The translations under genes and the position numbers were made by a program. Below, piece after piece: positions 104 to 18,909 of a stretch of DNA of 19,932 bases (its first letter is position 1; every line of letters begins with the position of its first letter). The DNA is from a virus (taxonomy: Duplodnaviria; Heunggongvirae; Uroviricota; Caudoviricetes). The notes under the pieces were generated by a model. It saw only the letters and a program-made list of their open reading frames with translations, was not told where the DNA came from and made no database searches. The stretch lies in the IMG/VR virus record IMGVR_UViG_3300028591_000113, positions 110,087 through 130,018 of that record; one strand, given 5' to 3'.

Positions 104-361
104 ATGCCAGAAGAAAAGAAACCTGAACAACCAGAAATTACAGGTTGGGCACAAGTTAACATTACTCCTGATATGCCATTAGGTTTAATTGTTAATTTTA
201 TGAATGTTTTAAACCAACGCTTAGTAACAGTTGAAAATATTGTTACAACTATCGGTCCAGATGGAAAAGCAATTAGTTTAACAGACCTTTATGCTATTCA
301 AGCAAAACAAGAACAAGAACGTTTAACTAAGGCGCCAGAACAACCAAAAGAAGGAGAATAA
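104..361 (+). CDS. Hypothetical protein, 85 aa
   Basis: AAGGAG RBS at about 91-96, TAA stop, 2 nt before the next ATG. No recognisable motif. Confidence 0.75.
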   Translation: MPEEKKPEQPEITGWAQVNITPDMPLGLIVNFMNVLNQRLVTVENIVTTIGPDGKAISLTDLYAIQAKQEQERLTKAPEQPKEGE

Positions 362-363
362 TA

Positions 364-2583
364 ATGAGTTTATTAGATGAAAGAACGTCTCAAAACTTTC
401 TCATCTATGCTAACAGTGTTATTAAATCTCGTGCTATTCCAAGTGTTGAAGATAACTTAAAGCCAATTCATCGTAGAATCTTATGGACATTATATGAAGA
501 TAAGGTTTATGATGATGCAAAAACAAAGAAGTGCGCTACCGAAGCAGGACGTGTTTTAGCATACTCTCCACACGGTGAAGCGTCAGTTTATAGTGCGTTA
601 GTTAGATTAGCGCAGTGGTGGAAACTTCGTTATCCACTTGTTTATATTCAAGGTAACGCTGGTAACCTATTAGGCGACAGTGCAGCTGCATCACGTTATA
701 CTGAGTGTAAATTATCACCACTTGGTATGATGATGTTGGAAGATATTAACAAAGATTGCGTTGATTTTAAACCAAACTATGATAACACTACTGAAGAACC
801 AGTAACTTTACCATCAAAGTTCCCATTTTTATTATGCGGAAATAATAGTGGTATTGCTGTTGGTATGGGTAGTGATATAGTTTCTCACAACTTTACAGAA
901 GTAAGTAAAGCTATTGAATACTATATGCTTCATAAAGATTGCACAACAGCAGACTTGATGAAATTTATTCAAGGTCCAGACTTCCCTACTGGTGGCATTA
1001 TTCTTAATGGTGAGGATTTACCAGCCATTTATGAAAGAGGCACTGGTAGTGTTAAAGTTGCGGCGCATTATGATATAACTAAAAAAGGTAAAGAAACTCT
1101 CATTATCTTCCATGATGTTCCTTATGGTGTGGAAATTGATGATGGTATCAAAAAACCTCTAAAGAAATTAGTTTTAGACGAAGGTTATGATGTGTTTAAG
1201 GATATTGTAGTTGAAAAGGCGGGTCCTAGAAACTACGACATCACTGTTACATTAGATAAAAATGCGAAAGTAGATGAATGTTTGAAGATTTTATTCAGTA
1301 AAACTAAACTTCAATCTACAATTAAAATTAACAATAACTTTATTGTTAATGGTGAACCAAGAGTTCTCAGCCTTAAAGGCATGATCGCCGCATGGGTTGA
1401 TTACAGAAGTAATTGTATCAAGAGAATTGCTCAAAACGATTATAATAAAACTAATCATAAACTCACAGTAGTTCTTGGTTTACAAAAATGTATGAGTGAT
1501 ATTGATAAACTTGTATCACTTATTCGTGAGTCGTCTAACAGAGCTGCGGCAAAAAGCGCTATTATGAAGGAATTTTCTCTTAATGACGAACAAGCCGAAG
1601 CGGTGTTAGATATGAAATTAAGTCGTTTAAGTCGCTTGGATTTAGCAGAACTAGATAAAGATGAAAGAGATTTAACTGATAAACTCGCTTTATTAAAATC
1701 TACTATTGAAGATGAAAACATGCGTTACGGCATTATCAAGAGTGATTTAGAAGAAATTAAAAAAGTTATTGGTCCTGATAATAGATTAACAGAAATTTAT
1801 TATGCACGACCAATCGAAACAATAGATAAACCTGTAATTAAAGAAGAATTTAAGATTTATCCAAATGGTTGGCGCTTAAATAACGTCGCAGGTGTTGAAG
1901 TTATTGATAGTGATTTAATAGATGTAGTTTATGCTTATGGTATTGGCGATATCTATGGATATACTGCCGATGGTACTATTTCTCCTCTTGGTCATGATAT
2001 TGACAACTTTATTGGAGCATCTGTACTTAATACAGGAAAAACTAAAATGGTAGCGGTTACTAAAAATGGCAACATCAAAGTATCATTGCTATCTGATTAT
2101 AAATTAAGCCGCAAAGGTGAAAAAGTCTTAAAGTTAAAAGAAGATGATGAGTTATTATATGCGGGTTTCTGCGATGATAATGATAATATTATCTTGTTTG
2201 ACGGTAACAATAAAATATTAAAGTTAGCAATTAAAGACTTACCTGTTGCGTCAAAATTAACAGTTGGCGTTAAATCTGGCTTTGCGCCATGTAGCGCCGC
2301 AATGGTTGTAACTGATAGTGATTTATTACTCTTAGTTACAAAAGATTTAAAAGGTAAATACACTCCAGTTAAAGACTTCTCATTAGATAGTCGAGGCAAT
2401 AAAGGTCAGACTATTGGAGATGACACTATTTGTGTCCGTCGTATCGAGAGTGCGCGTGAAAATATTTATCTTATTCCAAAACAAGGTAAACCATTTACTC
2501 TTGCAAGAAATAAACTAAGTATTAAGAGCCGTACTGCGACAGGCGCCGCACTTAGCACAAGAAACATTGTAAGGATAATCTAG
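364..2583 (+). CDS. Type IIA DNA topoisomerase subunit A (GyrA/ParC family), 739 aa
   Basis: Motifs LKPIHRRIL, YSPHGEASVY, active-site AASRYTE, GPDFPTGG, EQAEAVLDMKLSRL, plus a C-terminal beta-pinwheel-like region (VAVTKNGNIK, LLVTKDLKGK). There is no canonical GyrA box, so GyrA and ParC cannot be distinguished. Confidence 0.95.
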   Translation: MSLLDERTSQNFLIYANSVIKSRAIPSVEDNLKPIHRRILWTLYEDKVYDDAKTKKCATEAGRVLAYSPHGEASVYSALVRLAQWWKLRYPLVYIQGNAGNLLGDSAAASRYTECKLSPLGMMMLEDINKDCVDFKPNYDNTTEEPVTLPSKFPFLLCGNNSGIAVGMGSDIVSHNFTEVSKAIEYYMLHKDCTTADLMKFIQGPDFPTGGIILNGEDLPAIYERGTGSVKVAAHYDITKKGKETLIIFHDVPYGVEIDDGIKKPLKKLVLDEGYDVFKDIVVEKAGPRNYDITVTLDKNAKVDECLKILFSKTKLQSTIKINNNFIVNGEPRVLSLKGMIAAWVDYRSNCIKRIAQNDYNKTNHKLTVVLGLQKCMSDIDKLVSLIRESSNRAAAKSAIMKEFSLNDEQAEAVLDMKLSRLSRLDLAELDKDERDLTDKLALLKSTIEDENMRYGIIKSDLEEIKKVIGPDNRLTEIYYARPIETIDKPVIKEEFKIYPNGWRLNNVAGVEVIDSDLIDVVYAYGIGDIYGYTADGTISPLGHDIDNFIGASVLNTGKTKMVAVTKNGNIKVSLLSDYKLSRKGEKVLKLKEDDELLYAGFCDDNDNIILFDGNNKILKLAIKDLPVASKLTVGVKSGFAPCSAAMVVTDSDLLLLVTKDLKGKYTPVKDFSLDSRGNKGQTIGDDTICVRRIESARENIYLIPKQGKPFTLARNKLSIKSRTATGAALSTRNIVRII

Positions 2584-2597
2584 TCAGTCTAGATTAT
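2575..2597. repeat. 9-bp inverted repeat (ATAATCTAG-tcagt-CTAGATTAT) over the topoisomerase stop codon; possible terminator or operator
   Basis: Perfect arms at 2575-2583 and 2589-2597, immediately upstream of a -35 box. Confidence 0.45.
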
Positions 2598-2599
2598 TC

Positions 2600-2628
2600 T
2601 TGCTTATGTGGTGTAACTGCAGTATATT
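2600..2628 (+). promoter_or_regulatory. sigma70/sigmaA-type promoter TTGCTT-N17-TATATT
   Basis: -35 at 2600-2605, 17-nt spacer, -10 at 2623-2628, in the intergenic gap ahead of the wHTH-ssb-sak genes. Confidence 0.65.
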
Positions 2629-2688
2629 ATATATGTAATGTTAGCCACAAACATTATTTATTACTTAACATCAATAAGGAGATATTTA

Positions 2689-2955
2689 ATGGATAAAATC
2701 GTTTTAACAGACAATGCTAAAGCAGTCCTTGAATTTATGCAAGCTAATGATAGAGTGTTAGTTGGTAAAGACATGATTGAAATGACAGGTATCAAAGGTA
2801 TCTATCCAGTTCTTAATTCTTTAATTAAAAAGGAATTAGTTGAACAAGCCGAACCAGTTATGAGAGACTTTACAAATAACAAGGGCGAAACAAAACCAAA
2901 AGAATATAAAACCTACAGATTAACAGAATTAGGCAGAAATTATTACGAAGATTAA
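2689..2955 (+). CDS. Winged helix-turn-helix DNA-binding protein, 88 aa
   Basis: AAGGAG RBS at about 2676-2681 favours ATG 2689 over 2638. It has a VLNSLIKKELV recognition helix and a YRLTELG wing signature typical of wHTH folds. Confidence 0.65.
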   Translation: MDKIVLTDNAKAVLEFMQANDRVLVGKDMIEMTGIKGIYPVLNSLIKKELVEQAEPVMRDFTNNKGETKPKEYKTYRLTELGRNYYED

Positions 2956-3026
2956 TTAGTTGTTAATGTGGCAACAAATGATTAATAAAAACAAAAACAA
3001 ATAGGAGTTACAAAAAACACAAATTT

Positions 3027-3908
3027 ATGGCAGATTTTTTAAGAACAAACAACGTAAAAATCGTCGGTCATTTAATTAGTGCCGACATGAAAACTGGTGC
3101 TCGTAAAGATACAGGTGCTGGTTACATTTCCGGTAATGCGGTCGTTCAATCCGTTATCGGTGGTGAAAAGAAAGAATTTGAAATTTCTTTCTATGCAAAT
3201 GAACAAACTCAAGACAAGAAAGTCAGCAAACTTTATACATCTTATTCTAAGATGAATGAATTAGTTGGCAAGAAAGTCGAAATCACAGGCGAACTTAGAG
3301 AAAATCGTTATTACAGCAATAACGCTAAACAATTAGTTTCCGCTCAACAAATCTCAGGTCGTTTCGTTCGTGGCGTTTCTGAAGCAACAGATGATGTCGC
3401 AACATTTGAATTAGGCGGCTTCGTCGTCTCAGAACTTACAGAACGTAAGAATAAAAAAGATGAAATCTATCGTTATGACTTACAATTAGGTCAAGCTAAC
3501 TATGCTGGTAATGCAATGTCTATCTTCACAGTTAGCGCTCGTCCATCAGACATTGACATCATCAAAGGTTTACAAAGCATGTATCGCGCAGGCGACACAG
3601 TTGTTGTTAATGGTATGTTAGACTGGGTCGTTGAAGTTGTCACAAAAGAAAGTGATAACGTTGGTTTCGGTTCTGGCGCCGTCCATTCTTACACAAATAG
3701 AATGAGAAGCTTCTGGATCAGCGGTGGTTCTAAAGTCGTTGAAAAAGAAGAAGACGGTAAATACACTCAAGGTTTAATCCGTGACTTACTTAGTGCTTAT
3801 AAAGCCAAAGACGTCGAATTAATGGACAGTGCTAAGAAAAATAGTGATGGTGATAAAGAAATTGAAGAAAAACCTCCAGTCACCAGTCGTCAAACAAGCT
3901 TAATTTAA
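3027..3908 (+). CDS. ssb: Single-stranded DNA-binding protein (probable tandem OB folds), 293 aa
   Basis: N-terminal NNVKIVGHL and KKVEITGELRENRY, second OB-like unit (GDTVVVNGML), charged tail, and position next to sak and the helicase. Confidence 0.7.
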   Translation: MADFLRTNNVKIVGHLISADMKTGARKDTGAGYISGNAVVQSVIGGEKKEFEISFYANEQTQDKKVSKLYTSYSKMNELVGKKVEITGELRENRYYSNNAKQLVSAQQISGRFVRGVSEATDDVATFELGGFVVSELTERKNKKDEIYRYDLQLGQANYAGNAMSIFTVSARPSDIDIIKGLQSMYRAGDTVVVNGMLDWVVEVVTKESDNVGFGSGAVHSYTNRMRSFWISGGSKVVEKEEDGKYTQGLIRDLLSAYKAKDVELMDSAKKNSDGDKEIEEKPPVTSRQTSLI

Positions 3909-3924
3909 TAAAACTTTAATAAAT

Positions 3925-3949
3925 AAGGGCGGTGTAACAACCGCCCTTT
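3925..3949 (+). terminator. GC-rich hairpin AAGGGCGGT-gtaaca-ACCGCCCTT(T) between ssb and sak
   Basis: Perfect 9-bp stem with only a short U-tract, directly followed by the AGGAG RBS of the next gene. Confidence 0.55.
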
Positions 3950-3960
3950 AGGAGAACCCA

Positions 3961-4698
3961 ATGGAAAAAGAAAATACATTTGAAAAATTATATAACATTA
4001 ACTTAGCAGACAAAACAAAAGAAAAAATTGGTTTAAAATATTTAAGTTGGGCTTATGCTTGGGCAGAATTAAAGAAACTTTATCCTGACGCTGAAAGAAT
4101 TGTTTATAAAAGAAAAGTTACCACAAAGTCCACAAAGACTATTCCAGTCGATGGCGGTGGTACAGAAGTTATTGAAACAACATATGAAAACGAAATCCCA
4201 TACTTTACAGATGGTAAAACTTGCACAGTTAAGGTTGGTGTTAAAATTAATGGCGTTGAATATGTTGAAGAACTTCCAGTTATGAATAATAAGAATGCCT
4301 CAATCCGCGCAGAAAGTGTAACTTCAACAGACATCAATAGAGCAATTCAAAGATGTTTCGTTAAAGCATGCGCTCTTCACGGTTTAGGTTTATATATTTA
4401 TGCTGGTGAAGATTTACCTGAAGTTGATAAAGTCACTATTGACTATGAAGCATTAAAAGATGATAAGACAGAAGAAATTACTTCTGAACAATTTGAATTA
4501 ATCCGTAAGGAAGTTATTCAAAAAATTCAATCTTCTAAAGATGATTTTGATTCGACATCAAGTGAAGAACTCACAAAATATATTCTTGCATTGTTCAATG
4601 GTAAGAGAATTTCTTTATTAGAATATCCTGTTGACTCAGAAAACCTTCAAAAACTTCATCACTTCTTAATCAAACTTTATTCTCTCATTAAGAAATAA
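3961..4698 (+). CDS. Sak/Rad52-like single-strand annealing protein (DUF1071-type), 245 aa
   Basis: Motifs LKYLSWAYAW, LPVMNNKN and DINRAIQRCFVKACALHGLGLYIYAGEDLP are characteristic of this phage annealase family. Confidence 0.88.
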   Translation: MEKENTFEKLYNINLADKTKEKIGLKYLSWAYAWAELKKLYPDAERIVYKRKVTTKSTKTIPVDGGGTEVIETTYENEIPYFTDGKTCTVKVGVKINGVEYVEELPVMNNKNASIRAESVTSTDINRAIQRCFVKACALHGLGLYIYAGEDLPEVDKVTIDYEALKDDKTEEITSEQFELIRKEVIQKIQSSKDDFDSTSSEELTKYILALFNGKRISLLEYPVDSENLQKLHHFLIKLYSLIKK

Positions 4699-5102
4699 TG
4701 GCAGAATATAGCAGAAGACAGTTAGAAGAATTAATATGTGAATTAGTGGGAGTAACTCAAATTACTCCCCTAATCAATAAACATATTAGTGAACTAGCGT
4801 TGATTTATAAGATGACGTGGAAAGAAATTGCGCGTTGTCTTACTTATTATGTAGAAGTGGCGCGAGGAACATTGAGGGTTGAATATGGAATTAAAACTCC
4901 ATGTACTTCGGTAAGAGAGAAGGCAGATAAGTATTTTAAACAGTTGGAGCTTGACCAACGCAAACAACAAGGCGAAGCCGCCAAAGTTGTAGAGTATCAA
5001 GAAAATAATATTATATTCAATATCAAATCATTACAAAATAAAAAAAGACAACCAAAACAATATGACATTAACGAGATAGACGTTAATAAAGGAGACCAGT
5101 AA
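4698..5102 (+). CDS. Hypothetical helical protein, 134 aa (possible helicase loader, by position only)
   Basis: TAATG-coupled to sak and ends 1 nt before the helicase. No diagnostic motif. Confidence 0.7.
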   Translation: MAEYSRRQLEELICELVGVTQITPLINKHISELALIYKMTWKEIARCLTYYVEVARGTLRVEYGIKTPCTSVREKADKYFKQLELDQRKQQGEAAKVVEYQENNIIFNIKSLQNKKRQPKQYDINEIDVNKGDQ

Positions 5103-5103
5103 A

Positions 5104-6708
5104 ATGGCATCTGTAATTAGTAAAGATTTATTCGATACTAATGCGTCTACGTATGTATTAAGTTACTTAATGCACGATCCGTTGATTTTGCAAAATGATA
5201 GATTCACATTTTGTAAAGATGATTTTTATAAACCATTACAACAAATGGTGTTTTATGCGATATTTAATATGGCTCAACTTGGAACGGAGAAAATATCTCC
5301 GCAAGATATTGACCTATATTTAAAACAATATGACGCGCAATACGAATTTTATAAAAGAGAAAAAGGTTATGAGTTCGTAATGCAATGTTATCAGATTGCA
5401 GAGTCTGAAGACGCAAAGTTATTTGAATTTTATTACAATAGATTAAAAAAGTTCTCTTTTTTAAGAGATTTAGAGGCGATTGGTTATGATACCAAGGAGT
5501 TTTATGATACTCAAGCAAATGCCTTAAATAAAGACTTAGAAGATGAACGACTCAACAAAACATCTTTAGATGCTATTGGCAACAGAATTAGGGCGCACCT
5601 AGTTGAAATTGAAAATAGACATATCGGTAAAGATGATAGCACATCTCAAACCGCCGCAAAAGGTTTACGTCATTTAGTTGCGGAATTAAAAGAAAGTCCA
5701 GAAGTTGGTTTACCACTTGATGGAGAAATTATTAATTATGCGGCGAGAGGTGCCAGATTAGGAAAATTATATACATATAGCGCACCATCTGGTCAAGGTA
5801 AAACTAGATATATGGTTGGTAATGCTTGTGCAATTAGTTTTCCTTATATAGACAAGGATAGCGGTAAAATTATTTATCGTGGAACCTTGGAACAAGATGA
5901 TTACCAAAAAATAGTATATATTGCAACTGAACAAAAGGCCGATGAAATTCAGACCTTGATTTTAGCATACGTAAGTGGTGTTAATGAAAGAAATATTCTT
6001 CTTGGAAGTTATACGCCAGAAGAAGAAGATAGAATTAATAAAGCACTTGATATTATTGAAAAATATCAAGACAACTTTATGATTGAGTATATGTCTGACC
6101 CAAGTATCGCGCAAGTCAAGACAGTTATGGCAAGATATATTATTCAACATAATATACAATATTTATTCTATGATTACATTTTTAGTAGTCCAGGATTATT
6201 GAGTGAGTTTAGAGACGTCGAGGTTCGTGAAGACGTCGCTTTAATGATGCTTTCAAATAGTATCAAGGAAACTGCAAGTAATTATAATGTTTTTATTCAA
6301 AGCGCGACTCAATTAAATGAAAACTGGAGTAAAAAGGAAATAGGACCAAGAGACCAGAACTGTTTAAGAGGTTCTAAAGCGATCGCGGATAAAATTGATA
6401 TTGGTTTAATTGGTGTTCGTTTGGGTGAAGCAGAGATGAAACAAATTGATGCTGTTTTAAAAGAATTGCGCGCTCAAAACCCAATTAAATATAAAAGAGA
6501 CCCTAATATCGTAATTGATATTTATAAGAATAGACGTGGCGAATTAAATAGTGTTAAGGTGTTTAGATATTTTGATTATGCCACTTGTCATGCTGAAGAT
6601 TTGTTTATAACAGATTGCAGTTATAAAGCAGTTCAGGAAATTGGTCAATTAAAATATGACCAAAGACCATTTGACTACTTAGACTTAAAAACTAGAGGTA
6701 TCTTATAA
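5104..6708 (+). CDS. dnaB: Replicative DnaB-family (SF4) helicase, 534 aa
   Basis: Walker A APSGQGKT, IATEQ, Walker B LFYDYI, SATQLN, GSKAIADKID, KNRRG. Confidence 0.92.
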   Translation: MASVISKDLFDTNASTYVLSYLMHDPLILQNDRFTFCKDDFYKPLQQMVFYAIFNMAQLGTEKISPQDIDLYLKQYDAQYEFYKREKGYEFVMQCYQIAESEDAKLFEFYYNRLKKFSFLRDLEAIGYDTKEFYDTQANALNKDLEDERLNKTSLDAIGNRIRAHLVEIENRHIGKDDSTSQTAAKGLRHLVAELKESPEVGLPLDGEIINYAARGARLGKLYTYSAPSGQGKTRYMVGNACAISFPYIDKDSGKIIYRGTLEQDDYQKIVYIATEQKADEIQTLILAYVSGVNERNILLGSYTPEEEDRINKALDIIEKYQDNFMIEYMSDPSIAQVKTVMARYIIQHNIQYLFYDYIFSSPGLLSEFRDVEVREDVALMMLSNSIKETASNYNVFIQSATQLNENWSKKEIGPRDQNCLRGSKAIADKIDIGLIGVRLGEAEMKQIDAVLKELRAQNPIKYKRDPNIVIDIYKNRRGELNSVKVFRYFDYATCHAEDLFITDCSYKAVQEIGQLKYDQRPFDYLDLKTRGIL

Positions 6709-7781
6709 TGGATATAAGAGAACTTAGAGAACAATTAAGCGACGAGTCGATAAAAGAGATATTGGCGCAATTCAATGTTGAGCCAGTAGATGAAAATGAG
6801 GAAAGAATAATCTTTCCTACTTGTTGCCATAATTTAGAAGGCGGTAGTCCAAAGTTATTTTACTATAAAAACACCAAGTTATTCCATTGTTATACTGAAT
6901 GCGCGGCTTCATTCGACATCTTCACATTATTGCAAAAGATGTATGCGTTGCGCGGACAAGAGATAACATTAAAACAAGCGATTGAAATCTGTAATTTAGA
7001 TACAAGCACACTAAAGCCAGAAGATCGCGCATATAATTGTCTTGATGATATTAAATATATGCAGGAGTTAAATAACTTTTATATTCCTGATGTAGATAAT
7101 TTAGATTTTAAGAAATACGATAGAGGTATTTTGAAGAATTATCCATTCAATTATATGGGATTAATGCCTTGGATACAAGAAGGCATTGGAATTGAAGCGC
7201 TTCAACGTTTCTCAATAGGTTATGATAATTACCATCAAGCCATTATTATTCCTAACTTTGATTATAATGGAGACCTAATTGGTGTTCGTGCGCGTTTCTT
7301 TAAAGAAGAAGATGTTAAAAAAGGTAAATATAGACCTTTATATGTAAATGGCCAGTTATATAATCACCCAACTGGTCGAACATTCTATGGTATTTATGAA
7401 AACCATAAGAATATTGAAAGAAAGAAAACTGCAGTTATCTTTGAGGGTGAAAAGTCAGTATTGTTATTTGAAACAATTTATGGTGCAAAAGATAACATAT
7501 CATTAGCAACATTGGGACAAAACATTACTAAAGACCATATTCAGTATTTATTAAAGATGAAAGTTACTCATGTAATTTTGGCTTATGATACTGATTATGA
7601 AGATTACGACCAATTAAAAGAAGTTGATAAAAAATATAGAGAAAAGGCTAAAATTTTTAGTCCTTACTTCAATGTAAGTTACTTACTTGATGATGACTTT
7701 ATACTTCCGTATAAGTCTAGTCCTATTGACGGCGGCCGCGAAACATTCGAACATTTATTACAGAATAGGAGAATTGTATAA
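6708..7781 (+). CDS. dnaG: DnaG-type DNA primase, 357 aa
   Basis: N-terminal zinc-binding region (TCCH...FHCYTEC), TOPRIM VIFEGEKS and LAYDTD; TAATG-coupled to the helicase. Confidence 0.88.
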   Translation: MDIRELREQLSDESIKEILAQFNVEPVDENEERIIFPTCCHNLEGGSPKLFYYKNTKLFHCYTECAASFDIFTLLQKMYALRGQEITLKQAIEICNLDTSTLKPEDRAYNCLDDIKYMQELNNFYIPDVDNLDFKKYDRGILKNYPFNYMGLMPWIQEGIGIEALQRFSIGYDNYHQAIIIPNFDYNGDLIGVRARFFKEEDVKKGKYRPLYVNGQLYNHPTGRTFYGIYENHKNIERKKTAVIFEGEKSVLLFETIYGAKDNISLATLGQNITKDHIQYLLKMKVTHVILAYDTDYEDYDQLKEVDKKYREKAKIFSPYFNVSYLLDDDFILPYKSSPIDGGRETFEHLLQNRRIV

Positions 7782-7957
7782 TGAATAAGTTTTTAGATAT
7801 TTTAGGAAATATATTTATAGTTATTTTATGTATATTATCTCTACCATTCCTGATCGTGTTCGCGGCTATCGTGGCGGTTATTTATGCCTTATTTGTGATA
7901 GTTTGCCTCCCTTACTGGGTAGTGCGCTACCTAATCTTGGAGGATGATTATGAATAG
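7781..7957 (+). CDS. Small membrane protein, 58 aa (missing from the ORF track)
   Basis: MNKFLDILGNIFIVILCILSLPFLIVFAAIVAVIYALFVIVCLPYWVVRYLILEDDYE-TAG. It has a TAATG overlap with dnaG, overlaps the recJ start and contains about 40 continuous hydrophobic residues. Confidence 0.7.
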   Translation: MNKFLDILGNIFIVILCILSLPFLIVFAAIVAVIYALFVIVCLPYWVVRYLILEDDYE

Positions 7958-9767
7958 AGTAGAATTAAAATTAAATTCAATAAAAATGTATGACAGTAGA
8001 ACCGAGAATTTCTCATATGGTCTAGGATTCTTGGCGCAATACTTAATGAACTTAGGTATTGATAAAAAAGACGTGATGTGTTTTATCGACAAGCCACGTG
8101 ATACAGATCAAGATAATCCCGAACTATTAGATAATATCAAAGAAGCCGCAGATATGTTAGTTACTCAATTAGATTGTGGCGCCAAAGTATTTATCCAAGT
8201 AGATAGTGATACTGATGGTTATACATCTTCTGCTGTCTTAATTAATTATATTACACGTAGATGGCCAGGAGCGCGCATTGTTCATAGGTTACACAATGGC
8301 AAAGAGCATGGTATTATTTTAGAAACTGTGCCAACAGATTGCTCTGTTGTTATTATTCCTGATGCGGGTTCAAACCAGTTCTATGAACAAAATTATTTAG
8401 CAGACTTGGGCAAAACAGTAATTGTGCTTGACCACCACGAAGTGGATGAAATACAAGATACCAAAGCAATTATTGTTAACAACCAATTAAGTCCAAACTT
8501 CCCAAATAAAAATTTAAGTGGTGTTGGCGTTGTTTATATGTTTATTCAATATATTGATACACATTACTTCCCAACAGAAACTCCAATTTTTAGAGATTAT
8601 TTAGATTTAACTGCGGTTGGTATTATTGCTGATGCTATGAACATGACAGCGCTTGGCAATAATTATATTGCTTATTATGGTTTGAATAATATTAAAAGTA
8701 AGTTCTTACATGAGTTAGCAATCAAACAAAGTCGTGGTATTTCAGACCCTGACCACTTAACAAAGATCGATGTAGCCTTTTATATCGCGCCTGTAATTAA
8801 CGGTGTTATCAGATATGGTGCTCCAGAAGATAAAGAAATGGTATTTAAAGCGCTTACAACATGGCAAGATGACACAGATTATGAAAGCACTTGGCGTGGT
8901 GTGGTAAGACATGAAAACCTTTATCAATATGCGGTGCGCTTAGCCGTTAACGCAAAAGGTCGACAAGATAGTGCGAAAAAGAAATCCTTTGAATGGCTTT
9001 GCGAAAAGGTCAATGAAGAAGGGTTAGATAAAGATAATGTTATTATCGTAACATTAAATGAAAAAGAAAGTGCAAAAGTAAGTCCGAATATTACAGGTCT
9101 TATTGCAATGGAATTAGTCAACCATTACAATAAACCAGCACTTGTATTAAGAAAAACTACCTTTGAAGAAGGAGATAATGAAATCGAAGTTTACGGCGGA
9201 AGCGGTAGAAATGGTAATTTCTATGGTTTACCAGACCTTAAAAGTTTCTTAAAAGAAGCGGGCGCTTTTTATTGCGAAGGTCACGCCAATGCATTCGGTG
9301 CTTTCTTAAAACCAGAGGAAGTTCAACCAATTAGAGATTATGCGAATAAGAAATTAAATGTAAACTCTTTTGAAGAAGTTTATCAAGTAGATTACTGGTT
9401 TGATGGTAAACATCCAGTAAATTACGAATTACTCGAAGTATTCGCTAAACATAAAGCATTGTGGGGTAACTCAATCCCACAACCTAAATTCGCTTTTTCC
9501 GGGCATTATAAGAAGAGTGACATCTTTGTCATGGGTAAAGAGAAAAACTCTTTAAAAATTAATGGTGGGGAAATTAGTTTTGTATCTTTTAATGCTCGTA
9601 AAACAATAGATGAATTAACAGAGAATCCAGAAGGAACATACTTAATTGTTGGTAGACCGCAATTAAATGAATATATGGGTAATGTATCTATTCAAGTTAT
9701 GATAGATGATATTGCTATTAATCCTTCTACACCAACCTCTGCTATATCCTTATTGGATTTAATTTAG
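7950..9767 (+). CDS. recJ: RecJ-like ssDNA 5'-3' exonuclease (DHH family), about 605 aa
   Basis: Motifs VDSDTDG, IPDAG, LDHH, NLSGVGV, GSGR, GHANAFG. The GGAGG RBS at about 7939-7943 favours ATG 7950 over 7944. Confidence 0.9.
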   Translation: MNRVELKLNSIKMYDSRTENFSYGLGFLAQYLMNLGIDKKDVMCFIDKPRDTDQDNPELLDNIKEAADMLVTQLDCGAKVFIQVDSDTDGYTSSAVLINYITRRWPGARIVHRLHNGKEHGIILETVPTDCSVVIIPDAGSNQFYEQNYLADLGKTVIVLDHHEVDEIQDTKAIIVNNQLSPNFPNKNLSGVGVVYMFIQYIDTHYFPTETPIFRDYLDLTAVGIIADAMNMTALGNNYIAYYGLNNIKSKFLHELAIKQSRGISDPDHLTKIDVAFYIAPVINGVIRYGAPEDKEMVFKALTTWQDDTDYESTWRGVVRHENLYQYAVRLAVNAKGRQDSAKKKSFEWLCEKVNEEGLDKDNVIIVTLNEKESAKVSPNITGLIAMELVNHYNKPALVLRKTTFEEGDNEIEVYGGSGRNGNFYGLPDLKSFLKEAGAFYCEGHANAFGAFLKPEEVQPIRDYANKKLNVNSFEEVYQVDYWFDGKHPVNYELLEVFAKHKALWGNSIPQPKFAFSGHYKKSDIFVMGKEKNSLKINGGEISFVSFNARKTIDELTENPEGTYLIVGRPQLNEYMGNVSIQVMIDDIAINPSTPTSAISLLDLI

Positions 9768-9776
9768 GAGAAGATT

Positions 9777-10004
9777 ATGACTATTTCACAATTTTTAGAA
9801 GAACACGGCTTACATTGCCGCACCCCAGAAGAAGAAGATTTTATGTTGAAAGCATTAGACAAAATGTATGTTGAATGGTTGGCGCCAGAGGCTGCTATCC
9901 GTTTAATATTAGATTATTTGGAAAATGCTGATGAAATCTATAGCGACACTATGGCAGAACGAGAAGCAAATGAAAAAGTTCTGGCAGATAGCGAAGAAAA
10001 TTAG
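9777..10004 (+). CDS. Hypothetical acidic protein, 75 aa
   Basis: AGGAG RBS upstream, TAG stop, fills the recJ-dnaE gap. Confidence 0.7.
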   Translation: MTISQFLEEHGLHCRTPEEEDFMLKALDKMYVEWLAPEAAIRLILDYLENADEIYSDTMAEREANEKVLADSEEN

Positions 10005-10013
10005 TATATTATA
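10003..10013 (+). promoter_or_regulatory. Putative -10 element upstream of dnaE (AGTATATTATA, identical to 2621-2631)
   Basis: 11-nt identity with the -10 region of the 2600 promoter. The -35 match is weak (CTGGCA at 9981-9986). Confidence 0.35.
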
Positions 10014-10030
10014 AATAAGGAATAATAGAT

Positions 10031-13000
10031 ATGAGAGATTATATAGGATTGCACAACCACACAGAATATTCAAACGTCAAAGTTATTGACAGTATTAATA
10101 GATTTAACCGCATGGTAGACTATGCGTGGGATTTAGGTTTGTCTGGTTTAGCATTAACAGACCATGACTGTTTAAGTGGAACTTTACAAGCTCTCGATAT
10201 CTATAAAGCAAAACTTAAAAAAGAATGGACTGCGCTTCATCCTGACGAAGAATTGCCAGGATGGGCGGAGATGTCCAAAGAACTAGATTTCAAAGTTATT
10301 TTAGGTAATGAGATTTATCTTAGTGAAGAAGGCTTAAATGAGTCGCAAATGTCTAGTGCTGCTCCGGCTCATTTTTGGCATTTAATTTTATTAGCAAAAG
10401 ATGAAATAGGATTTAGACAACTTAAAGAATTAAGTAGTCGTGCCTGGAGACGCGCATGGTTTAGAGGTATTTTAAGAACACCAACTTATCCAAGCGATTT
10501 AGTAGAAATTATTAGCGCTAATCCAGGTCATATAGTTTGTTCCACAGCATGTCTTGGTAGTTACACCGCATGGTGTTGGAGAAATTATACTATTGCTTGT
10601 AAAGATGACGGCGGTTTGGACTTTATTCCAGACGGCGGACATGACAAACAATGGTATTTAGATAAATTAGATAATCACCTATCTGCGATGCAGAATCTTT
10701 TTGGTGTAGGTAATTTCTTTATTGAATTACAACCAAACGAAAAAGGTAGTGAACAAAATGAATATAATAAGTTTATGTTGGATAGATATTTTCCAGAATA
10801 TCCTTTCATCTTCACTACTGATGCTCACTATTTGAAGGCAGAAGAAAGAAATATTCACAAAGCATTCTTAAATAGTAAAAGCTCAAAAGATAGAGAAGTA
10901 GATGATTTCTATAAATATACATATATAATGAGTCAGGCAGAAGTTCGTAGTTTAATGGATTATGTGTCTGATGAAGTTTTTGAATCAATGGTAGATTGCA
11001 CAAGACATATTAAAGATAGTGTGCAATTCTTTGAAATTGAAAAGCCAAAAGTTATCGCAAAAGTTGAATATGAACACTGGGATGAATATGCCGATGATTT
11101 AGATATGTTCTTAGATATTTCGCAAGACGATTATCCAGTGTTTTATGAATATTTACATACAGAAGATAGAGCAGACAATTATTTAGCGCGTTTAATTGCA
11201 CATGGTTATGCTTTGAAGCAACAACCAAGTTGGGACCAATCTGTGTATTTCGCGCGCATTGAAGAAGAATTAGATATTATTAAAAAGGTTGGCGATGCAA
11301 TTCATCAATCTATGTCTGACTACTTCATTACAATGAGTAAAATGGTTGACTTAATGTGGCAAGCAAACTCTTTAGTTGGACCATCTCGTGGTTCTGCTGG
11401 CGCCATGTTAATTAACTATTTAATTGATATTACACAAATGAACCCAGTTGAGATGGATTTGCCATTTGTTTGGAGATTTATGCACCCATCAAGACCAGAC
11501 TATCCTGATATTGACGTTGACTCTGAAAGCGATAAGCGTGTCGCTGTTTTTAACACAATTAGAGATTACTTCAGAGGATTAGGCGGTGACGTTATTAACG
11601 TTTGTACATTTGGTACAGAAGGAACAAAGAGTGCTATTAAAACTGCGGGTCGTGGCTTAAAAATTGATGATGACGTAATTAGTTATATTACATCAATGAT
11701 TCCAAACGAAAGAGGCTTTGACTGGTCATTACATGACTGTTATTATGGTAATGATGATGATAGAAAACCTATTAGTAACTTTGTCGCGCAAATGAATGAG
11801 TATCCTCAATTATGGGAATTAGCGCAAAGTATTGAAGGTTTAGTTACTCGTTTAGGTGTTCACGCATCAGGTGTTGTTTGTGTTAATGGTGATTTTAACG
11901 AATATAATAGTGTTATGAAAACTTCTAAGGAACAGTTGGTTTCAGCATATGACTTACACACATTAGAAAGATGTGGTGTATTGAAATACGACTTACTTAC
12001 TGTTTCCGCGCTTGACCGTATTCACCAATGTATGAACTATATGTTGGAAGATGGAGTTTTAGAGTGGCAAGGAAGTTTAAAAGAAACTTATAATAAATAT
12101 TTGAATCCAGCAATCTTAGACTATACCAGTCCTGAGATGTGGAAAATGGCAGAAGAAGGACAAATTAGTAGTTTGTTCCAATTCGATACAAACCAAGGAC
12201 AAGTGGCGATGAGACAAATTGGTCCGCAATCATTAAAAGAATTAGCCATCGCGAACTCGGTTATGAGATTAATGAGTGATGGTGAGTTGCCACTAGAAAA
12301 GTATGCACGTTTCAAAAAAGTGCCATCTTTATGGTATGATGAAATGCGCGCTTACGGTTTAAATGAAAATGAAATTAAAGTATTAGAAAAATACTTAAAA
12401 GAAAAGAGCGGTATTGCAGATAGTCAAGAAGTTGTTATGCAGATATCAATGGATCCACAAATTAGCGGATTCAGTATGCAAGAAGCAAACAAATTAAGAA
12501 AGACTATCGCGAAGAAACAATTTAGAGAAATTGAAGCAGTTAAACAATTATTCTTTGATAAAGGTAAAGAAGTAGGTGCATCATATAACTTATTAAGTTA
12601 TATTTGGTATGTTCAAATTAGTATGCAATTAGGTTATTCATTCTCAACAATTCATACTACTGGTTACAGTTTAATTGCTATTCAAGAAATGAACTTGGCG
12701 TATCATTATCCAATTATTTATTGGAACTGCGCATGTTTAAGTGTTGATAGTAGCGCTATAAATAGTTTAGACTTTGATAACTTAATCGAAGAAGATATTA
12801 TCTCTGTCGAAACGGGTGAAAAAGTAGCCAAAAATAAAATGGATTATGCTAAACTCGCATCAGCATTGGATAAGTTTAGTGGAATTTGCGATATTGAACT
12901 TCCAGACATAAATAAGTCTAAACTTAGTTTTATGCCAGATGTTAAGAAGAACAGTATTCTTTATGGATTAAAAGGTATTGCTAAAGTCACTGAACCTGTT

Positions 13001-14077
13001 ATTGCGGAAATTATGATGCACCGTCCATTTGAATCATTAAAAGACTTTTTAAATAAAGTAACAAAGAGAGTTGTTACAAAAGATAAAGTTATTAACTTAA
13101 TTAAATGCGGCGCGTTTAATGAAATTGAAGGCAAGACAACAGAAGAAGTATTAAAAGATTATATTGCTTCTGTTTGCGATTTAAAGAAGAATTTAACAAT
13201 GCAAAATGCAAATATGTTAATTGATTTGTATTTATTACCGCAAGAGTTAAGTTATAACATGGATGTCTATAAATTAACAAAAGAATTGAGAAGACATCGT
13301 GATGAAAATAAGATTTGGTATTGCGCTGATAGATTAGATATTCCAATGAATAAGTTAGATAGTTGGAAACAAATATTTAAGGATAGCGGCATTGAGGGCA
13401 AAGAAATCGTATTAAATGATGAGCCTCGTAAAGTTATTGATAGCGCAAAGTGGGATTTATTCTATGAAAGACAAATGGGTCCTATTAGAAAATATATTAC
13501 TGATAATAAGACTGAATTATTAGATAAATTGAATACTCGTTTATATAATGATGAATGGCAAAAATATTGCCAAGGCGATATCTTACAATGGGAATTAGAT
13601 AGTATGAACTTCTTCTTTAGCGGTCACCCATTAAAGAAGGTTATTAAACAACTTCCAATAGTCATTGATAAAGTTGAGGATGTCGTTGAAGGTGTTCAAG
13701 ATGGTTTCTTCTATATTAAAGGCAAAGAAATTCCAAGAATGAAACTTTATACATTAGCGGGTACAGTTATTGATAAAGATACAACAAAAGGTTTAGTTAC
13801 TTTACAATGTCCAAGTGGCGTCGTGACATTGAAGATTTATAAAGACTTATTTGCAACATTGGCGGCAACAGTTGGTGATGTTAGTATTGAAGGTGAAAAA
13901 GAAATCGAACAAGAAGGTTTCTTTGAAAAGGGGACACATTTAATGGTAACAGGTGTTCAACGTGGTGCAACGTTTGTTCCAAAGGTTTATAAGTCAACTG
14001 GTCGTAAAGCAATTTTAAAGATTGTTTTAGATGAAGACGGTGACTTTGTTGAATTCGAGGAGAAACAAGATGCGTAA
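10031..14077 (+). CDS. dnaE: DNA polymerase III alpha subunit (DnaE, family C), 1348 aa
   Basis: PHP domain (LHNHTEYS, LTDHD, GNEIY, TDAHY), SRGSAG, catalytic PDIDVD, GVHASGV, KYDLL, FQFD, GYSFSTIH and a C-terminal OB fold. No intein splice motifs were noticed. Confidence 0.96.
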   Translation: MRDYIGLHNHTEYSNVKVIDSINRFNRMVDYAWDLGLSGLALTDHDCLSGTLQALDIYKAKLKKEWTALHPDEELPGWAEMSKELDFKVILGNEIYLSEEGLNESQMSSAAPAHFWHLILLAKDEIGFRQLKELSSRAWRRAWFRGILRTPTYPSDLVEIISANPGHIVCSTACLGSYTAWCWRNYTIACKDDGGLDFIPDGGHDKQWYLDKLDNHLSAMQNLFGVGNFFIELQPNEKGSEQNEYNKFMLDRYFPEYPFIFTTDAHYLKAEERNIHKAFLNSKSSKDREVDDFYKYTYIMSQAEVRSLMDYVSDEVFESMVDCTRHIKDSVQFFEIEKPKVIAKVEYEHWDEYADDLDMFLDISQDDYPVFYEYLHTEDRADNYLARLIAHGYALKQQPSWDQSVYFARIEEELDIIKKVGDAIHQSMSDYFITMSKMVDLMWQANSLVGPSRGSAGAMLINYLIDITQMNPVEMDLPFVWRFMHPSRPDYPDIDVDSESDKRVAVFNTIRDYFRGLGGDVINVCTFGTEGTKSAIKTAGRGLKIDDDVISYITSMIPNERGFDWSLHDCYYGNDDDRKPISNFVAQMNEYPQLWELAQSIEGLVTRLGVHASGVVCVNGDFNEYNSVMKTSKEQLVSAYDLHTLERCGVLKYDLLTVSALDRIHQCMNYMLEDGVLEWQGSLKETYNKYLNPAILDYTSPEMWKMAEEGQISSLFQFDTNQGQVAMRQIGPQSLKELAIANSVMRLMSDGELPLEKYARFKKVPSLWYDEMRAYGLNENEIKVLEKYLKEKSGIADSQEVVMQISMDPQISGFSMQEANKLRKTIAKKQFREIEAVKQLFFDKGKEVGASYNLLSYIWYVQISMQLGYSFSTIHTTGYSLIAIQEMNLAYHYPIIYWNCACLSVDSSAINSLDFDNLIEEDIISVETGEKVAKNKMDYAKLASALDKFSGICDIELPDINKSKLSFMPDVKKNSILYGLKGIAKVTEPVIAEIMMHRPFESLKDFLNKVTKRVVTKDKVINLIKCGAFNEIEGKTTEEVLKDYIASVCDLKKNLTMQNANMLIDLYLLPQELSYNMDVYKLTKELRRHRDENKIWYCADRLDIPMNKLDSWKQIFKDSGIEGKEIVLNDEPRKVIDSAKWDLFYERQMGPIRKYITDNKTELLDKLNTRLYNDEWQKYCQGDILQWELDSMNFFFSGHPLKKVIKQLPIVIDKVEDVVEGVQDGFFYIKGKEIPRMKLYTLAGTVIDKDTTKGLVTLQCPSGVVTLKIYKDLFATLAATVGDVSIEGEKEIEQEGFFEKGTHLMVTGVQRGATFVPKVYKSTGRKAILKIVLDEDGDFVEFEEKQDA

Positions 14078-14252
14078 ATGGAAAGATGTTCAAGAAGAAA
14101 AGAATAAACTTGAACGTAAACTAGAAATGATTACGATTAGAAATGCATATCAAGGTTTAATTACAGTTTCTAAATATTGTAATTCATTTGAAGATTTTAT
14201 AAAAAATTTAGAAGTTTTCATTGAACGACTTAATGAAGAGATTGATAAGTAA
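14070..14252 (+). CDS. Hypothetical coiled-coil protein, 60 aa
   Basis: GAGGAG RBS at about 14057-14062 supports ATG 14070, overlapping the dnaE end; TAA at 14250-14252. Confidence 0.65.
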   Translation: MRKWKDVQEEKNKLERKLEMITIRNAYQGLITVSKYCNSFEDFIKNLEVFIERLNEEIDK

Positions 14253-15990: not shown

Positions 15991-16017
15991 AAAAAGGACT
16001 AGTAATTAGTCCTTTTT
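15991..16017. terminator. Bidirectional intrinsic terminator between convergent genes
   Basis: AAAAAGGACTA-gtaat-TAGTCCTTTTT, with A/T tracts on both sides. It overlaps the holin stop codon. Confidence 0.8.
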
Positions 16018-16356
16018 ATTATTCATGCCATTGTACCATTCGATACAAGAATCAATATAAGCACCGAGTTGGTCAACAAATGGATCTATATTAAGACCTG
16101 CAGCTTTTGCACTAGCCTTAACTGAATTAATAACTGCTTCTTTTTTCGCCACACCCTTAAGAGTTGAATGTTCAAATTCTTTCATAGCAGCATCAGCCAT
16201 AGTCATAAGTATATCCCACCTTTCTTTGGCTGTCTTTTCTTTCACGGCTTTAATTCAACCTTTAATTGCAAAGAATGTTGCAACACCTGTGCCGATTAAG
16301 CCAAATAAACCACTAAGTAAAGCAATTAATCCATTAACTGTGGTAATCCAATCCAT
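16006..16356 (-). CDS. Holin-like protein (LL-H-type architecture), 116 aa, one in-frame TGA
   Basis: AGGAG RBS, then MDWITTVNGLIALLSGLFGLIGTGVATFFAIKG[TGA 16255-16257]IKAVKEK... One N-terminal TM helix followed by an amphipathic tail (GVAKKEAVINSV...AGLNID...IDSCIEWYNGMN). Confidence 0.65.
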
Positions 16357-16367
16357 ATCAATCTCCT

Positions 16368-16874
16368 TTATTTATTTGTGGGTTCTGAGGGTAATTTCAT
16401 TACTTGTTCATGTAAATTATCCACAACACCGTTCTTACCTAAATTATGATAAGACCAATAGAGTTCATCAAATTCTGTCTTTTCTAAATCACTTGCCCAG
16501 CCGCGATCAACATAAATTTTGCCGTCTTGACGTAAACTACGACGAACGTCTTTTTGCATAGCTTTCTTCATGGAAAGAAGTTCTTCATCAATGTCGTCCA
16601 GTTCTTTGGTAACATTCTGATCCATGTTATCAATTTTCTTTTCAACGTCTTGTTTTAATCCTTTGATTTGTTCATGAACGTCTTTTTTAATTGCGTCGTC
16701 ACGGTCTTTGTTTTCTTGTTTACGCGTCTGTTCACGCAATTTTTCTAATTCAGCTTGGTCATCTTCTTTCTTCTTTTGTCTTTTATTTCACCAAGTGGTG
16801 ATTATTAGACCAATTATTGTTGTGAAAGCAACGTTGATGCCGCCAACGATAAGACCTATAATTACACCTTCCAT
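16368..16874 (-). CDS. Membrane-anchored coiled-coil protein of the type found beside phage holins, 168 aa, one in-frame TGA
   Basis: GGAGG RBS, then MEGVIIGLIVGGINVAFTTIIGLIITTW[TGA 16788-16790]NKRQKKK..., a coiled coil, and C-terminal ELYWSYHNLGKNGVVDNLHEQVMKLP. That last motif is recalled from phage lysis-region proteins. Confidence 0.7.
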
Positions 16875-17945: not shown

Positions 17946-18539
17946 TTATTCTTCTATTTGCTGAAGAGCTCATTGGTAAAGTATTTTAATTTTTTCTAAA
18001 TCTTGTTGATCATGAGCAATATTAATATTAGTTATTTGTTCTTCGGTTAAATCATATGACTGATTTAGTAAAATATAAAGAGTGGTTAAAATATGATATA
18101 AACCTTTTTTACTATGCTGTTTTTCTTTTCATTGAATTAGAGTTTTTCACATACGTTCTTCATATTGTAAAATATCAAACTGATCAATAACTGGATATAA
18201 GGTGCCAATTAAATTTTGTCGATATTTATATAAATATGCATAAATCGGTCAATGATCTATAAAAGATTCATCATATTTTTCATTATAACGAAAAATGATT
18301 TGGTAAGAGCCATCAAGATCATGTATTTGTCTACTTAAAGTTCGACATTTTTTTATTCGTTCTCTGTCATAATATCGATGTTTTCATACTAAGATAATAT
18401 CTACATCATGAGGATTTGTAATATATGGAACTGAAAAAGACCCACCAATTCAAATACACTGTAATTCTTCTTCATTTTGATGAAAAAAGTTAATTAATAT
18501 TGTTTTAATCTGATCATCCAGCACTTTGGTCTCAAGCAT
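17946..18539 (-). CDS. Pol-beta-superfamily nucleotidyltransferase-like protein, 197 aa, six in-frame TGA (missing from the ORF track)
   Basis: AGGAG RBS, ATG 18539, tandem TAA TAA stop. The sequence LQCI[W]IGGSFSVPYITNPHDVDIILV[W] gives the hGS...DxD signature, followed by a helical C-terminus (GLYHILTTLYILLNQSYDLTEEQI). Confidence 0.75.
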
Positions 18540-18909
18540 ATATATCTCCTTCTATTTGTAAATCTATATTAAAATCATAAATTTCTGCCTCAGTATAATA
18601 AAGATAAAACCATACCATATTATTAGAATCTACAGATCCTAACTCATAATCTTCACGTTCATATGTATCAGAACTAGTATTAACATACAAATAAGATACT
18701 GTAATATTAACATCAAAAGAATTAGGATTCTCAATACGTAAAAAAGCATATCAGCCTGTATCTTCATCATAATCACGAGAGGCATAAATATTTAACTCTT
18801 GATATGTAGCATCAGGAAAAACCTTGGTACCGCCATGATAGACGGTGCTTATCGAAGCGGTACCATGTTTTACTATTGTAATATTGGTTGAACCATGTTT
18901 AATTGCCAT
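18505..18909 (-). CDS. Small probable virion/tail-associated protein (134 aa if all TGA are read through; 125 aa if TGA 18532-18534 is the stop)
   Basis: AAGGT RBS. The N-terminus MAIKHGSTNITIVKHGTASISTVYHGGTKVFP has the repeated hG motif seen in phage tail-associated proteins. One internal TGA (DTG[W]YAF) precedes a beta-rich C-terminus. Confidence 0.65.

Follow-up and report, generated by a model that had tools for sequence, protein, structure and literature searches.

The stretch of DNA analysed here (the window, 19,932 nucleotides) makes up the final 19.9 kb of one 130,018-bp virus record from the rumen, for which CheckV gives a completeness of 100%. The phage it comes from is complete at 130 kb, translates TGA as tryptophan in some of its genes and has its own tRNA(UCA): among the 33 tRNA genes of the phage genome, one carries the anticodon TCA (genome positions 88929-89025, found with ARAGORN). 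A map of the open reading frames under genetic code 4 contains 254 TGA and 421 TGG codons over the whole genome. The replication genes of the window are free of TGA (Table 1), as are further long stretches at 31-70 kb of the genome; TGA-rich are the structural genes and the genes rightward of window position 14252, and the neighbours of the replication block hold at least 22 TGAs. A host with the standard code is inferred only from the avoidance of TGA in the early genes. The early region also encodes a full sigma-70-type factor (regions 1.2, 2, 3 and 4; genome positions 44580-45413, plus strand), likewise free of TGA. At the other end of the window, the genes at 17946-18909 use TGA nine times and TGG once; the minus-strand segment 17946-19927 comprises a collagen-like tail-fibre gene, which runs off the contig end, and two small genes. 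Just past the window end, at genome positions 26-847 on the plus strand, a gene with 19 Trp codons (15 TGG and 4 TGA) encodes a protein of 273 aa; the gene adjoins the tail-fibre genes, and the protein matched nothing in Pfam or PHROG.

Between these regions, two small minus-strand genes, termed here B and A in the order of transcription, form a tightly packed unit whose position is conserved in the relatives. The gene order (a RuvC-like gene, gene B, the holin gene A, and a DnaQ-like exonuclease gene on the opposite strand) is kept in the relatives, and their junction between gene B and the holin gene is also tight, ranging from an overlap to 16 nt. A scan for sigma-70 promoters found none on the minus strand upstream of gene B at the thresholds of the tool.

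Table 1 Features of the two-gene unit and of the replication block. Positions are those of the window.
Feature	Position	Strand	Remarks
Replication block, including the 1348-aa DNA polymerase III alpha-type gene	104..14252	+	0 TGA / 47 TGG; standard-code contrast
Bidirectional terminator-like hairpin between the convergent exonuclease and holin genes	15991..16017	.	11-12 base pairs; T runs on both strands
Gene A, 116 aa, putative holin, homologue of the LL-H type	16006..16356	-	PHROG, Pfam and TIGR matches
TGA, codon 34 of the holin gene	16255..16257	-	TCA on the plus strand; polymorphic among close strains
Shine-Dalgarno sequence AGGAG of the holin gene	16363..16367	-	Abuts the gene B TAA (16368-16370), 6 nt before the holin ATG
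Gene B, 168 aa, first of the pair	16368..16874	-	Code-4 open reading frame
TGA, codon 29 of gene B	16788..16790	-	TCA on the plus strand; second Trp of a WW pair where the membrane helix ends

Gene A was accepted as a homologue of the LL-H-type holins and encodes a putative holin. Its product matched PHROG 6918 (holin, E 1.7e-7) and the PHROG holin family 2609 (E 3.2e-6), and the profile similarity to Holin_LLH spans residues 25-91. The scores against the curated profiles were below their cut-offs, namely 19.5 bits against 24.9 for PF09682 (E 0.0013) and 22.9 bits against 34.75 for TIGR01673 (E 8.6e-5). PF09682 was nevertheless matched by all 44 of the 44 aligned relatives of gene A at E <= 0.01; some of them pass its cut-off (L102, 26.3 bits), and the same family is precomputed for many homologues. 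Gene A is the sole PF09682 match in the phage genome. According to the hydropathy and charge map, the protein has a membrane helix at its N-terminus and, after it, a charged, helical, Lys-rich soluble part; the single hydrophobic segment on the Kyte-Doolittle scale is uncharged over residues 3-31 and leads into a Lys/Arg-rich stretch. In its size and its single N-terminal membrane helix, gene A agrees with the Holin_LLH family (PF09682, TIGR01673; Lactobacillus phage LL-H), whose members have about 110-125 aa; it differs in scoring under both curated cut-offs and in that no endolysin of the ten Pfam families searched was found beside it. No match for gene A was found in the cultured-phage collection or in a single-protein search of viral contigs, whereas alignment-based searches of the contigs did find relatives.

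Gene B is of a different kind. The initial annotation had called both genes holin-type, which is borne out for gene A only, by its homology; gene B matches no holin family, and its assignment as a holin is not supported. No Pfam family was found for gene B, the NCBIfam search gave nothing meaningful, and the two PHROG families it does match (4257 and 4105) are both unannotated as to function. A profile search of the PDB returned coiled-coil noise only, the BFVD fold search returned uncharacterised proteins together with weak "holin" labels, which are not decisive, and the single match in the cultured-phage collection is unannotated. The family is nevertheless sizeable, with 100 homologues found, and the C-terminal 65 or so residues are very conserved and include invariant ones. 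Like gene A, gene B has a single hydrophobic segment (Kyte-Doolittle), uncharged over residues 3-30 and followed by a Lys/Arg-rich stretch. In the AlphaFold2 model (mean pLDDT 88.2), one helix spans residues 2-124 and is followed by helices at 129-144 and 152-159, which is consistent with an N-terminal membrane helix, a long coiled-coil stalk, and a small conserved C-terminal helical domain. The members of this family are coiled-coil membrane proteins with a single membrane pass, and their genes are rich in TGA. As the Lys/Arg cluster follows the helix, the C-terminal part is suggested to be cytoplasmic.

A coiled-coil single-pass membrane protein beside a holin is also found in the XhlA-XhlB pair of PBSX and in the i-spanins (Rz). 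The membrane helix of XhlA is C-terminal, and the XhlA family (PF10779) was absent from the Pfam hits of gene B at E <= 0.1 and from those of its 40 relatives. The likeness of gene B to the Rz i-spanin is one of architecture only; judged by its charges, gene B would have the reverse topology, with a cytoplasmic C-terminus.

Each of the two genes carries exactly one TGA. The Trp codons of gene A are 3, 34, 47 and 107, and those of gene B are 28, 29, 126 and 140; codon 34 and codon 29, respectively, are TGA, and the other three in each gene are TGG. In the alignments, relatives show TGG in the same columns, 34 of gene A and 28/29 of gene B, and TGA therefore stands for Trp in both genes. Under table 11, gene A would yield a product of 33 aa and gene B one of 28 aa. 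The number of TGAs, their codon positions and the lengths of the truncated products had been given correctly in the initial annotation, as the reading of the minus strand shows, and the placement of each TGA beside the only membrane helix of its gene was confirmed by the Kyte-Doolittle hydropathy. Given the uncharged stretches, both TGAs lie at the cytoplasm-side edge of the helix. For the relatives of the holin that keep a TGA at codon 34, public gene callers report an ORF of 33 aa and another of 65 or 66 aa. An AGGTGG motif lies 9 nt before Met51, the start of the called 65/66-aa ORF (holin codons 43-51, window positions 16204-16230, minus strand), and a soluble holin fragment made by internal initiation at Met51 is conceivable.

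The genome was searched for lytic enzymes, with gene A, which the same tool did find, as the positive control. No endolysin was found in the whole genome among ten Pfam families altogether (Amidase_2, Amidase_3, GH25, CHAP, Phage_lysozyme, SLT, NLPC_P60, M23, Glucosaminidase and M15_4), a Pfam profile search of the whole genome found no Lipase_3, and Pfam and PHROG scans of about 20 further ORFs of the genome gave no lysin. In some relatives, the holin is followed by a class-3 lipase gene (Lipase_3, E ~1e-14) or by an uncharacterised 304-aa gene (the downstream genes were read in L013, L014, L053 and L101), and more distant B-like genes have the lipase directly downstream. A tblastn search of the present genome with these neighbour genes (the 304-aa gene, the lipase and the neighbours in L078) gave no match. 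As none of these endolysin families was found in the genome, a lytic role of the pair is predicted from the homology of gene A. Two further arrangements show that the holin and gene B are separable modules: L078, a 27-kb contig of a standard-code phage with an integrase, has a holin of 65% identity and no gene B, and in L075 the holin stands directly after a tail-fibre gene.

The failure of the ten family searches to find an endolysin would fit a wall-less host, and a Mollicute that itself uses code 4 would read TGA as ordinary Trp, so that nothing would be gated. We consider such a host highly improbable. LL-H-type holins are typical of phages of walled Gram-positive bacteria, and the presence of one here speaks against it. 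So do the tRNA(UCA) carried by the phage, the existence of standard-code relatives (L100 and L078), and the sharp partition of the genome itself, in which 14 kb of replication genes have 0 TGA against 47 TGG beside genes with at least 22 TGAs.

The placement of both TGAs next to a membrane helix could be a coincidence of this genome. With one TGA per four Trp in each gene, the chance that both fall beside the helix is about 1/4 x 2/4 = 1/8, and the coincidence, seen in this genome alone, is therefore not significant. A general placement of TGA towards the 5' ends of genes was considered and rejected: the mean relative position is 0.509 for TGA and 0.507 for TGG (p = 0.93), and the first Trp codon is TGA in 40 of 59 genes, compared with 176 of 309 later ones (p = 0.15). 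In the recoded genes of at least 100 aa in the whole genome, TGA makes up a fraction of 0.68 of the Trp codons that precede A, compared with 0.45 of those that precede T (p = 0.012), a preference that resembles the known leakiness of UGA-A; both TGAs of the pair precede A.

The relatives give a different answer for each gene. Their DNA was taken from viral and metagenome contigs, and the Trp codons were read column by column. In the holin, TGA was found at Trp3 in 0 of 15 sequences, at Trp34 in 5 of 9, at Trp47 in 2 of 16, and at Trp107 in 0 of 9. The TGA at codon 34 is confined to a clade at 77% identity or above, where it occurs in the window, L067-L072 and L075; about 20 further holins have no TGA in this column. 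Even close strains differ: the holin of L018 is 100% identical to that of the window in amino acids and 97.7% in nucleotides, the changes being synonymous only, one of them at codon 34, where L018 has TGG, as does L074. On a tree of ten sequences, the state of this codon changes at least three times. In L101 and L102, the holins are entirely free of TGA beside a fully recoded gene B. Taken together, the TGG of L018 and L074, the repeated changes and the absence from distant holins indicate that the holin TGA is a labile synonymous polymorphism, and the idea of a switch conserved in the holin does not survive these comparisons.

The same data bear on the suggestion of the initial annotation that the truncated helix peptides of 33 and 28 aa are themselves functional, as inert placeholders or antiholin-like products, forming a two-state switch with the full-length proteins. 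Both peptides would hold the whole membrane helix, and the conserved early TGA of gene B (described below) means that a peptide of 27-34 aa is possible in all recoded relatives. Nonetheless, we regard functional peptides as very unlikely. L018 and L074, whose holins are identical or almost identical to this one, use TGG and cannot make the 33-aa peptide, which contradicts an antiholin role of the holin peptide and leaves the antiholin-like reading without support; more distant recoded relatives have no holin TGA at all, literature searches gave no precedent, and a null product would be the simpler explanation of an early stop.

In gene B, by contrast with the holin, the position is conserved; the lack of conserved placement that the initial annotation had named as grounds for refutation is thus seen in the holin and not in gene B. 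Wherever a recoded relative has Trp at the helix-adjacent site, a TGA is there (16 of 16 distinct sequences, from about 11 related lineages), and the gene B of L101 and of L102 adds two further cases. Within the WW pair, the TGA may be on the first or the second Trp, with at least two switches on the tree. The site as such shows a single state change, compared with at least five for the codon of the invariant Trp-140, and never loses its TGA among the recoded members. By our own calculation, a random placement of TGAs, given the number in each gene, would produce this pattern with p ~0.016-0.03, on about seven informative lineages; taking account of the A/G context preference weakens the signal to about p = 0.04. 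The helix-adjacent TGA in gene B thus seems to be kept by selection, on evidence from sequence comparison that is suggestive only. The two genes of the pair also differ in their overall load: in the recoded B-holin pairs, gene B has 38 TGA and 30 TGG, and the holin has 8 and 54. The TGA fraction of gene B exceeds that of the holin in 18 of 21 distinct pairs, and the nominal Fisher p of 2e-7 for the difference overstates the evidence because the sequences are related.

A competing account holds that the TGAs are passengers: they would arise from G-to-A pressure in an AT-rich genome and be tolerated in any gene whose translation begins when the suppressor tRNA is already there, and neither their presence nor their position would be selected or regulatory. 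The helix-adjacent position would then be merely that of an interface Trp before a codon starting with A. Much in the data is as such an account would have it. Codon 34 of the holin is TGA in some and TGG in others of a set of near-identical strains, a genome-wide 5' bias is absent, TGA is favoured before A, and the TGA fraction of gene B, 56%, is about that of recoded genes generally (216 of 368, 59%). What it does not explain well is that the helix-adjacent TGA of gene B is kept in every recoded relative while the other Trp codons of the gene flip, and that the adjacent holin is strongly depleted in TGA, so that the two genes of one operon are not at one neutral equilibrium. Moreover, Borges et al. 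(10.1101/2021.08.26.457843) report significant preferential recoding of the transmembrane protein of the lysis cassette. On balance, we hold the passenger account to be possible but doubtful.

From these results, we lean, with modest confidence, towards gating by the suppressor tRNA, in which gene B would be consistently gated at a selected early TGA and the TGA of the holin would be nearly neutral. In a host with the standard code, translation of gene B would end at codon 29 and, in this strain, that of gene A at codon 34. This block would last until the phage tRNA(UCA) accumulates, so that full-length proteins would be made only late and short helix peptides before. A stop placed early in gene B would give a null product and not a nearly complete protein, and it could also lower the expression of the holin, which starts at the stop codon of gene B. 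The TGA of the holin itself would be a near-neutral TGG/TGA synonymous polymorphism of this strain group. The position just after the helix would mainly reflect the site of a conserved interface Trp, helped by the genome-wide preference for TGA before A.

The effect on the holin may be taken further, so that the early TGA of gene B would act as a polar gate for the whole operon, with the 28-aa helix peptide perhaps functional as well. The stop at codon 29 would leave about 420 nt untranslated upstream of the holin, and such a gate would account for a holin that is itself almost free of TGA. The holin's own strong Shine-Dalgarno sequence argues against polarity from gene B, and we consider this extended version unlikely.

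Gating by the suppressor tRNA has partial parallels among well-known phage genes. The idea of one lysis gene giving two membrane products with opposed roles is shared with S105/S107 of lambda. There, the two products arise from two start codons and both are full length; here, the short product would be a truncation at a stop codon without the soluble part, and it is not conserved for the holin. Reading the holin as a dual-product gene of the lambda S type was rejected, since L018, L074 and all distant relatives lack the TGA. For the read-through protein A1 of Q-beta, UGA is read by tRNA-Trp and a short and a long product are obtained from one phage gene. Both products of Q-beta are structural, and the read-through is of low level and due to a host tRNA, whereas here a suppressor tRNA of the phage recodes many genes.

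The closest likeness is to the recoded gut phages studied by Borges et al., whose work was reportedly published in 2022 in Nat Microbiol. They described code-4 Agate phages of about 127 kb whose lysis cassette includes a strongly recoded transmembrane protein (bioRxiv 10.1101/2021.08.26.457843), and proposed that recoding keeps lytic genes from being expressed at the wrong time (10.1101/2021.08.26.457843). The phage analysed here shares with the Agate phages the genome size (about 127-130 kb), the origin from animal gut or rumen, the reading of TGA as Trp and the suppressor tRNA, as well as standard-code replication genes alongside recoded structural and lysis genes. In both, the lysis cassette holds a strongly recoded transmembrane protein, and the tail protein immediately upstream is recoded too. 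The phage is of the Agate type by genome features and codon pattern, and gene B fits their recoded transmembrane protein by description. The switch idea of the initial annotation is a version of their published hypothesis: late synthesis dependent on read-through, to which the tRNA with anticodon TCA and the TGA-free replication genes point, stands but had already been proposed, and the antiholin role falls away.

The window is, in this respect, one more, ordinary example of the recoded-lysis-gene phenomenon already described. The analysis of Borges et al. is at the level of genes and carries no report of a helix-adjacent TGA site or of a TGA-poor holin next to the recoded protein; the conserved helix-adjacent TGA in gene B and the TGA-poor holin beside it are the new details, and they are modest ones. 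Should stop-codon recoding indeed set the time of lysis, both the cassette gene that holds the gate and the position of the gate within it become important. Here, the gate would sit early in the upstream coiled-coil membrane protein, with the holin remaining largely in the standard code. The published hypothesis could thereby be tested on something concrete, a single codon of a single gene, and gene B may be regarded as a candidate lysis regulator that is worth characterising.
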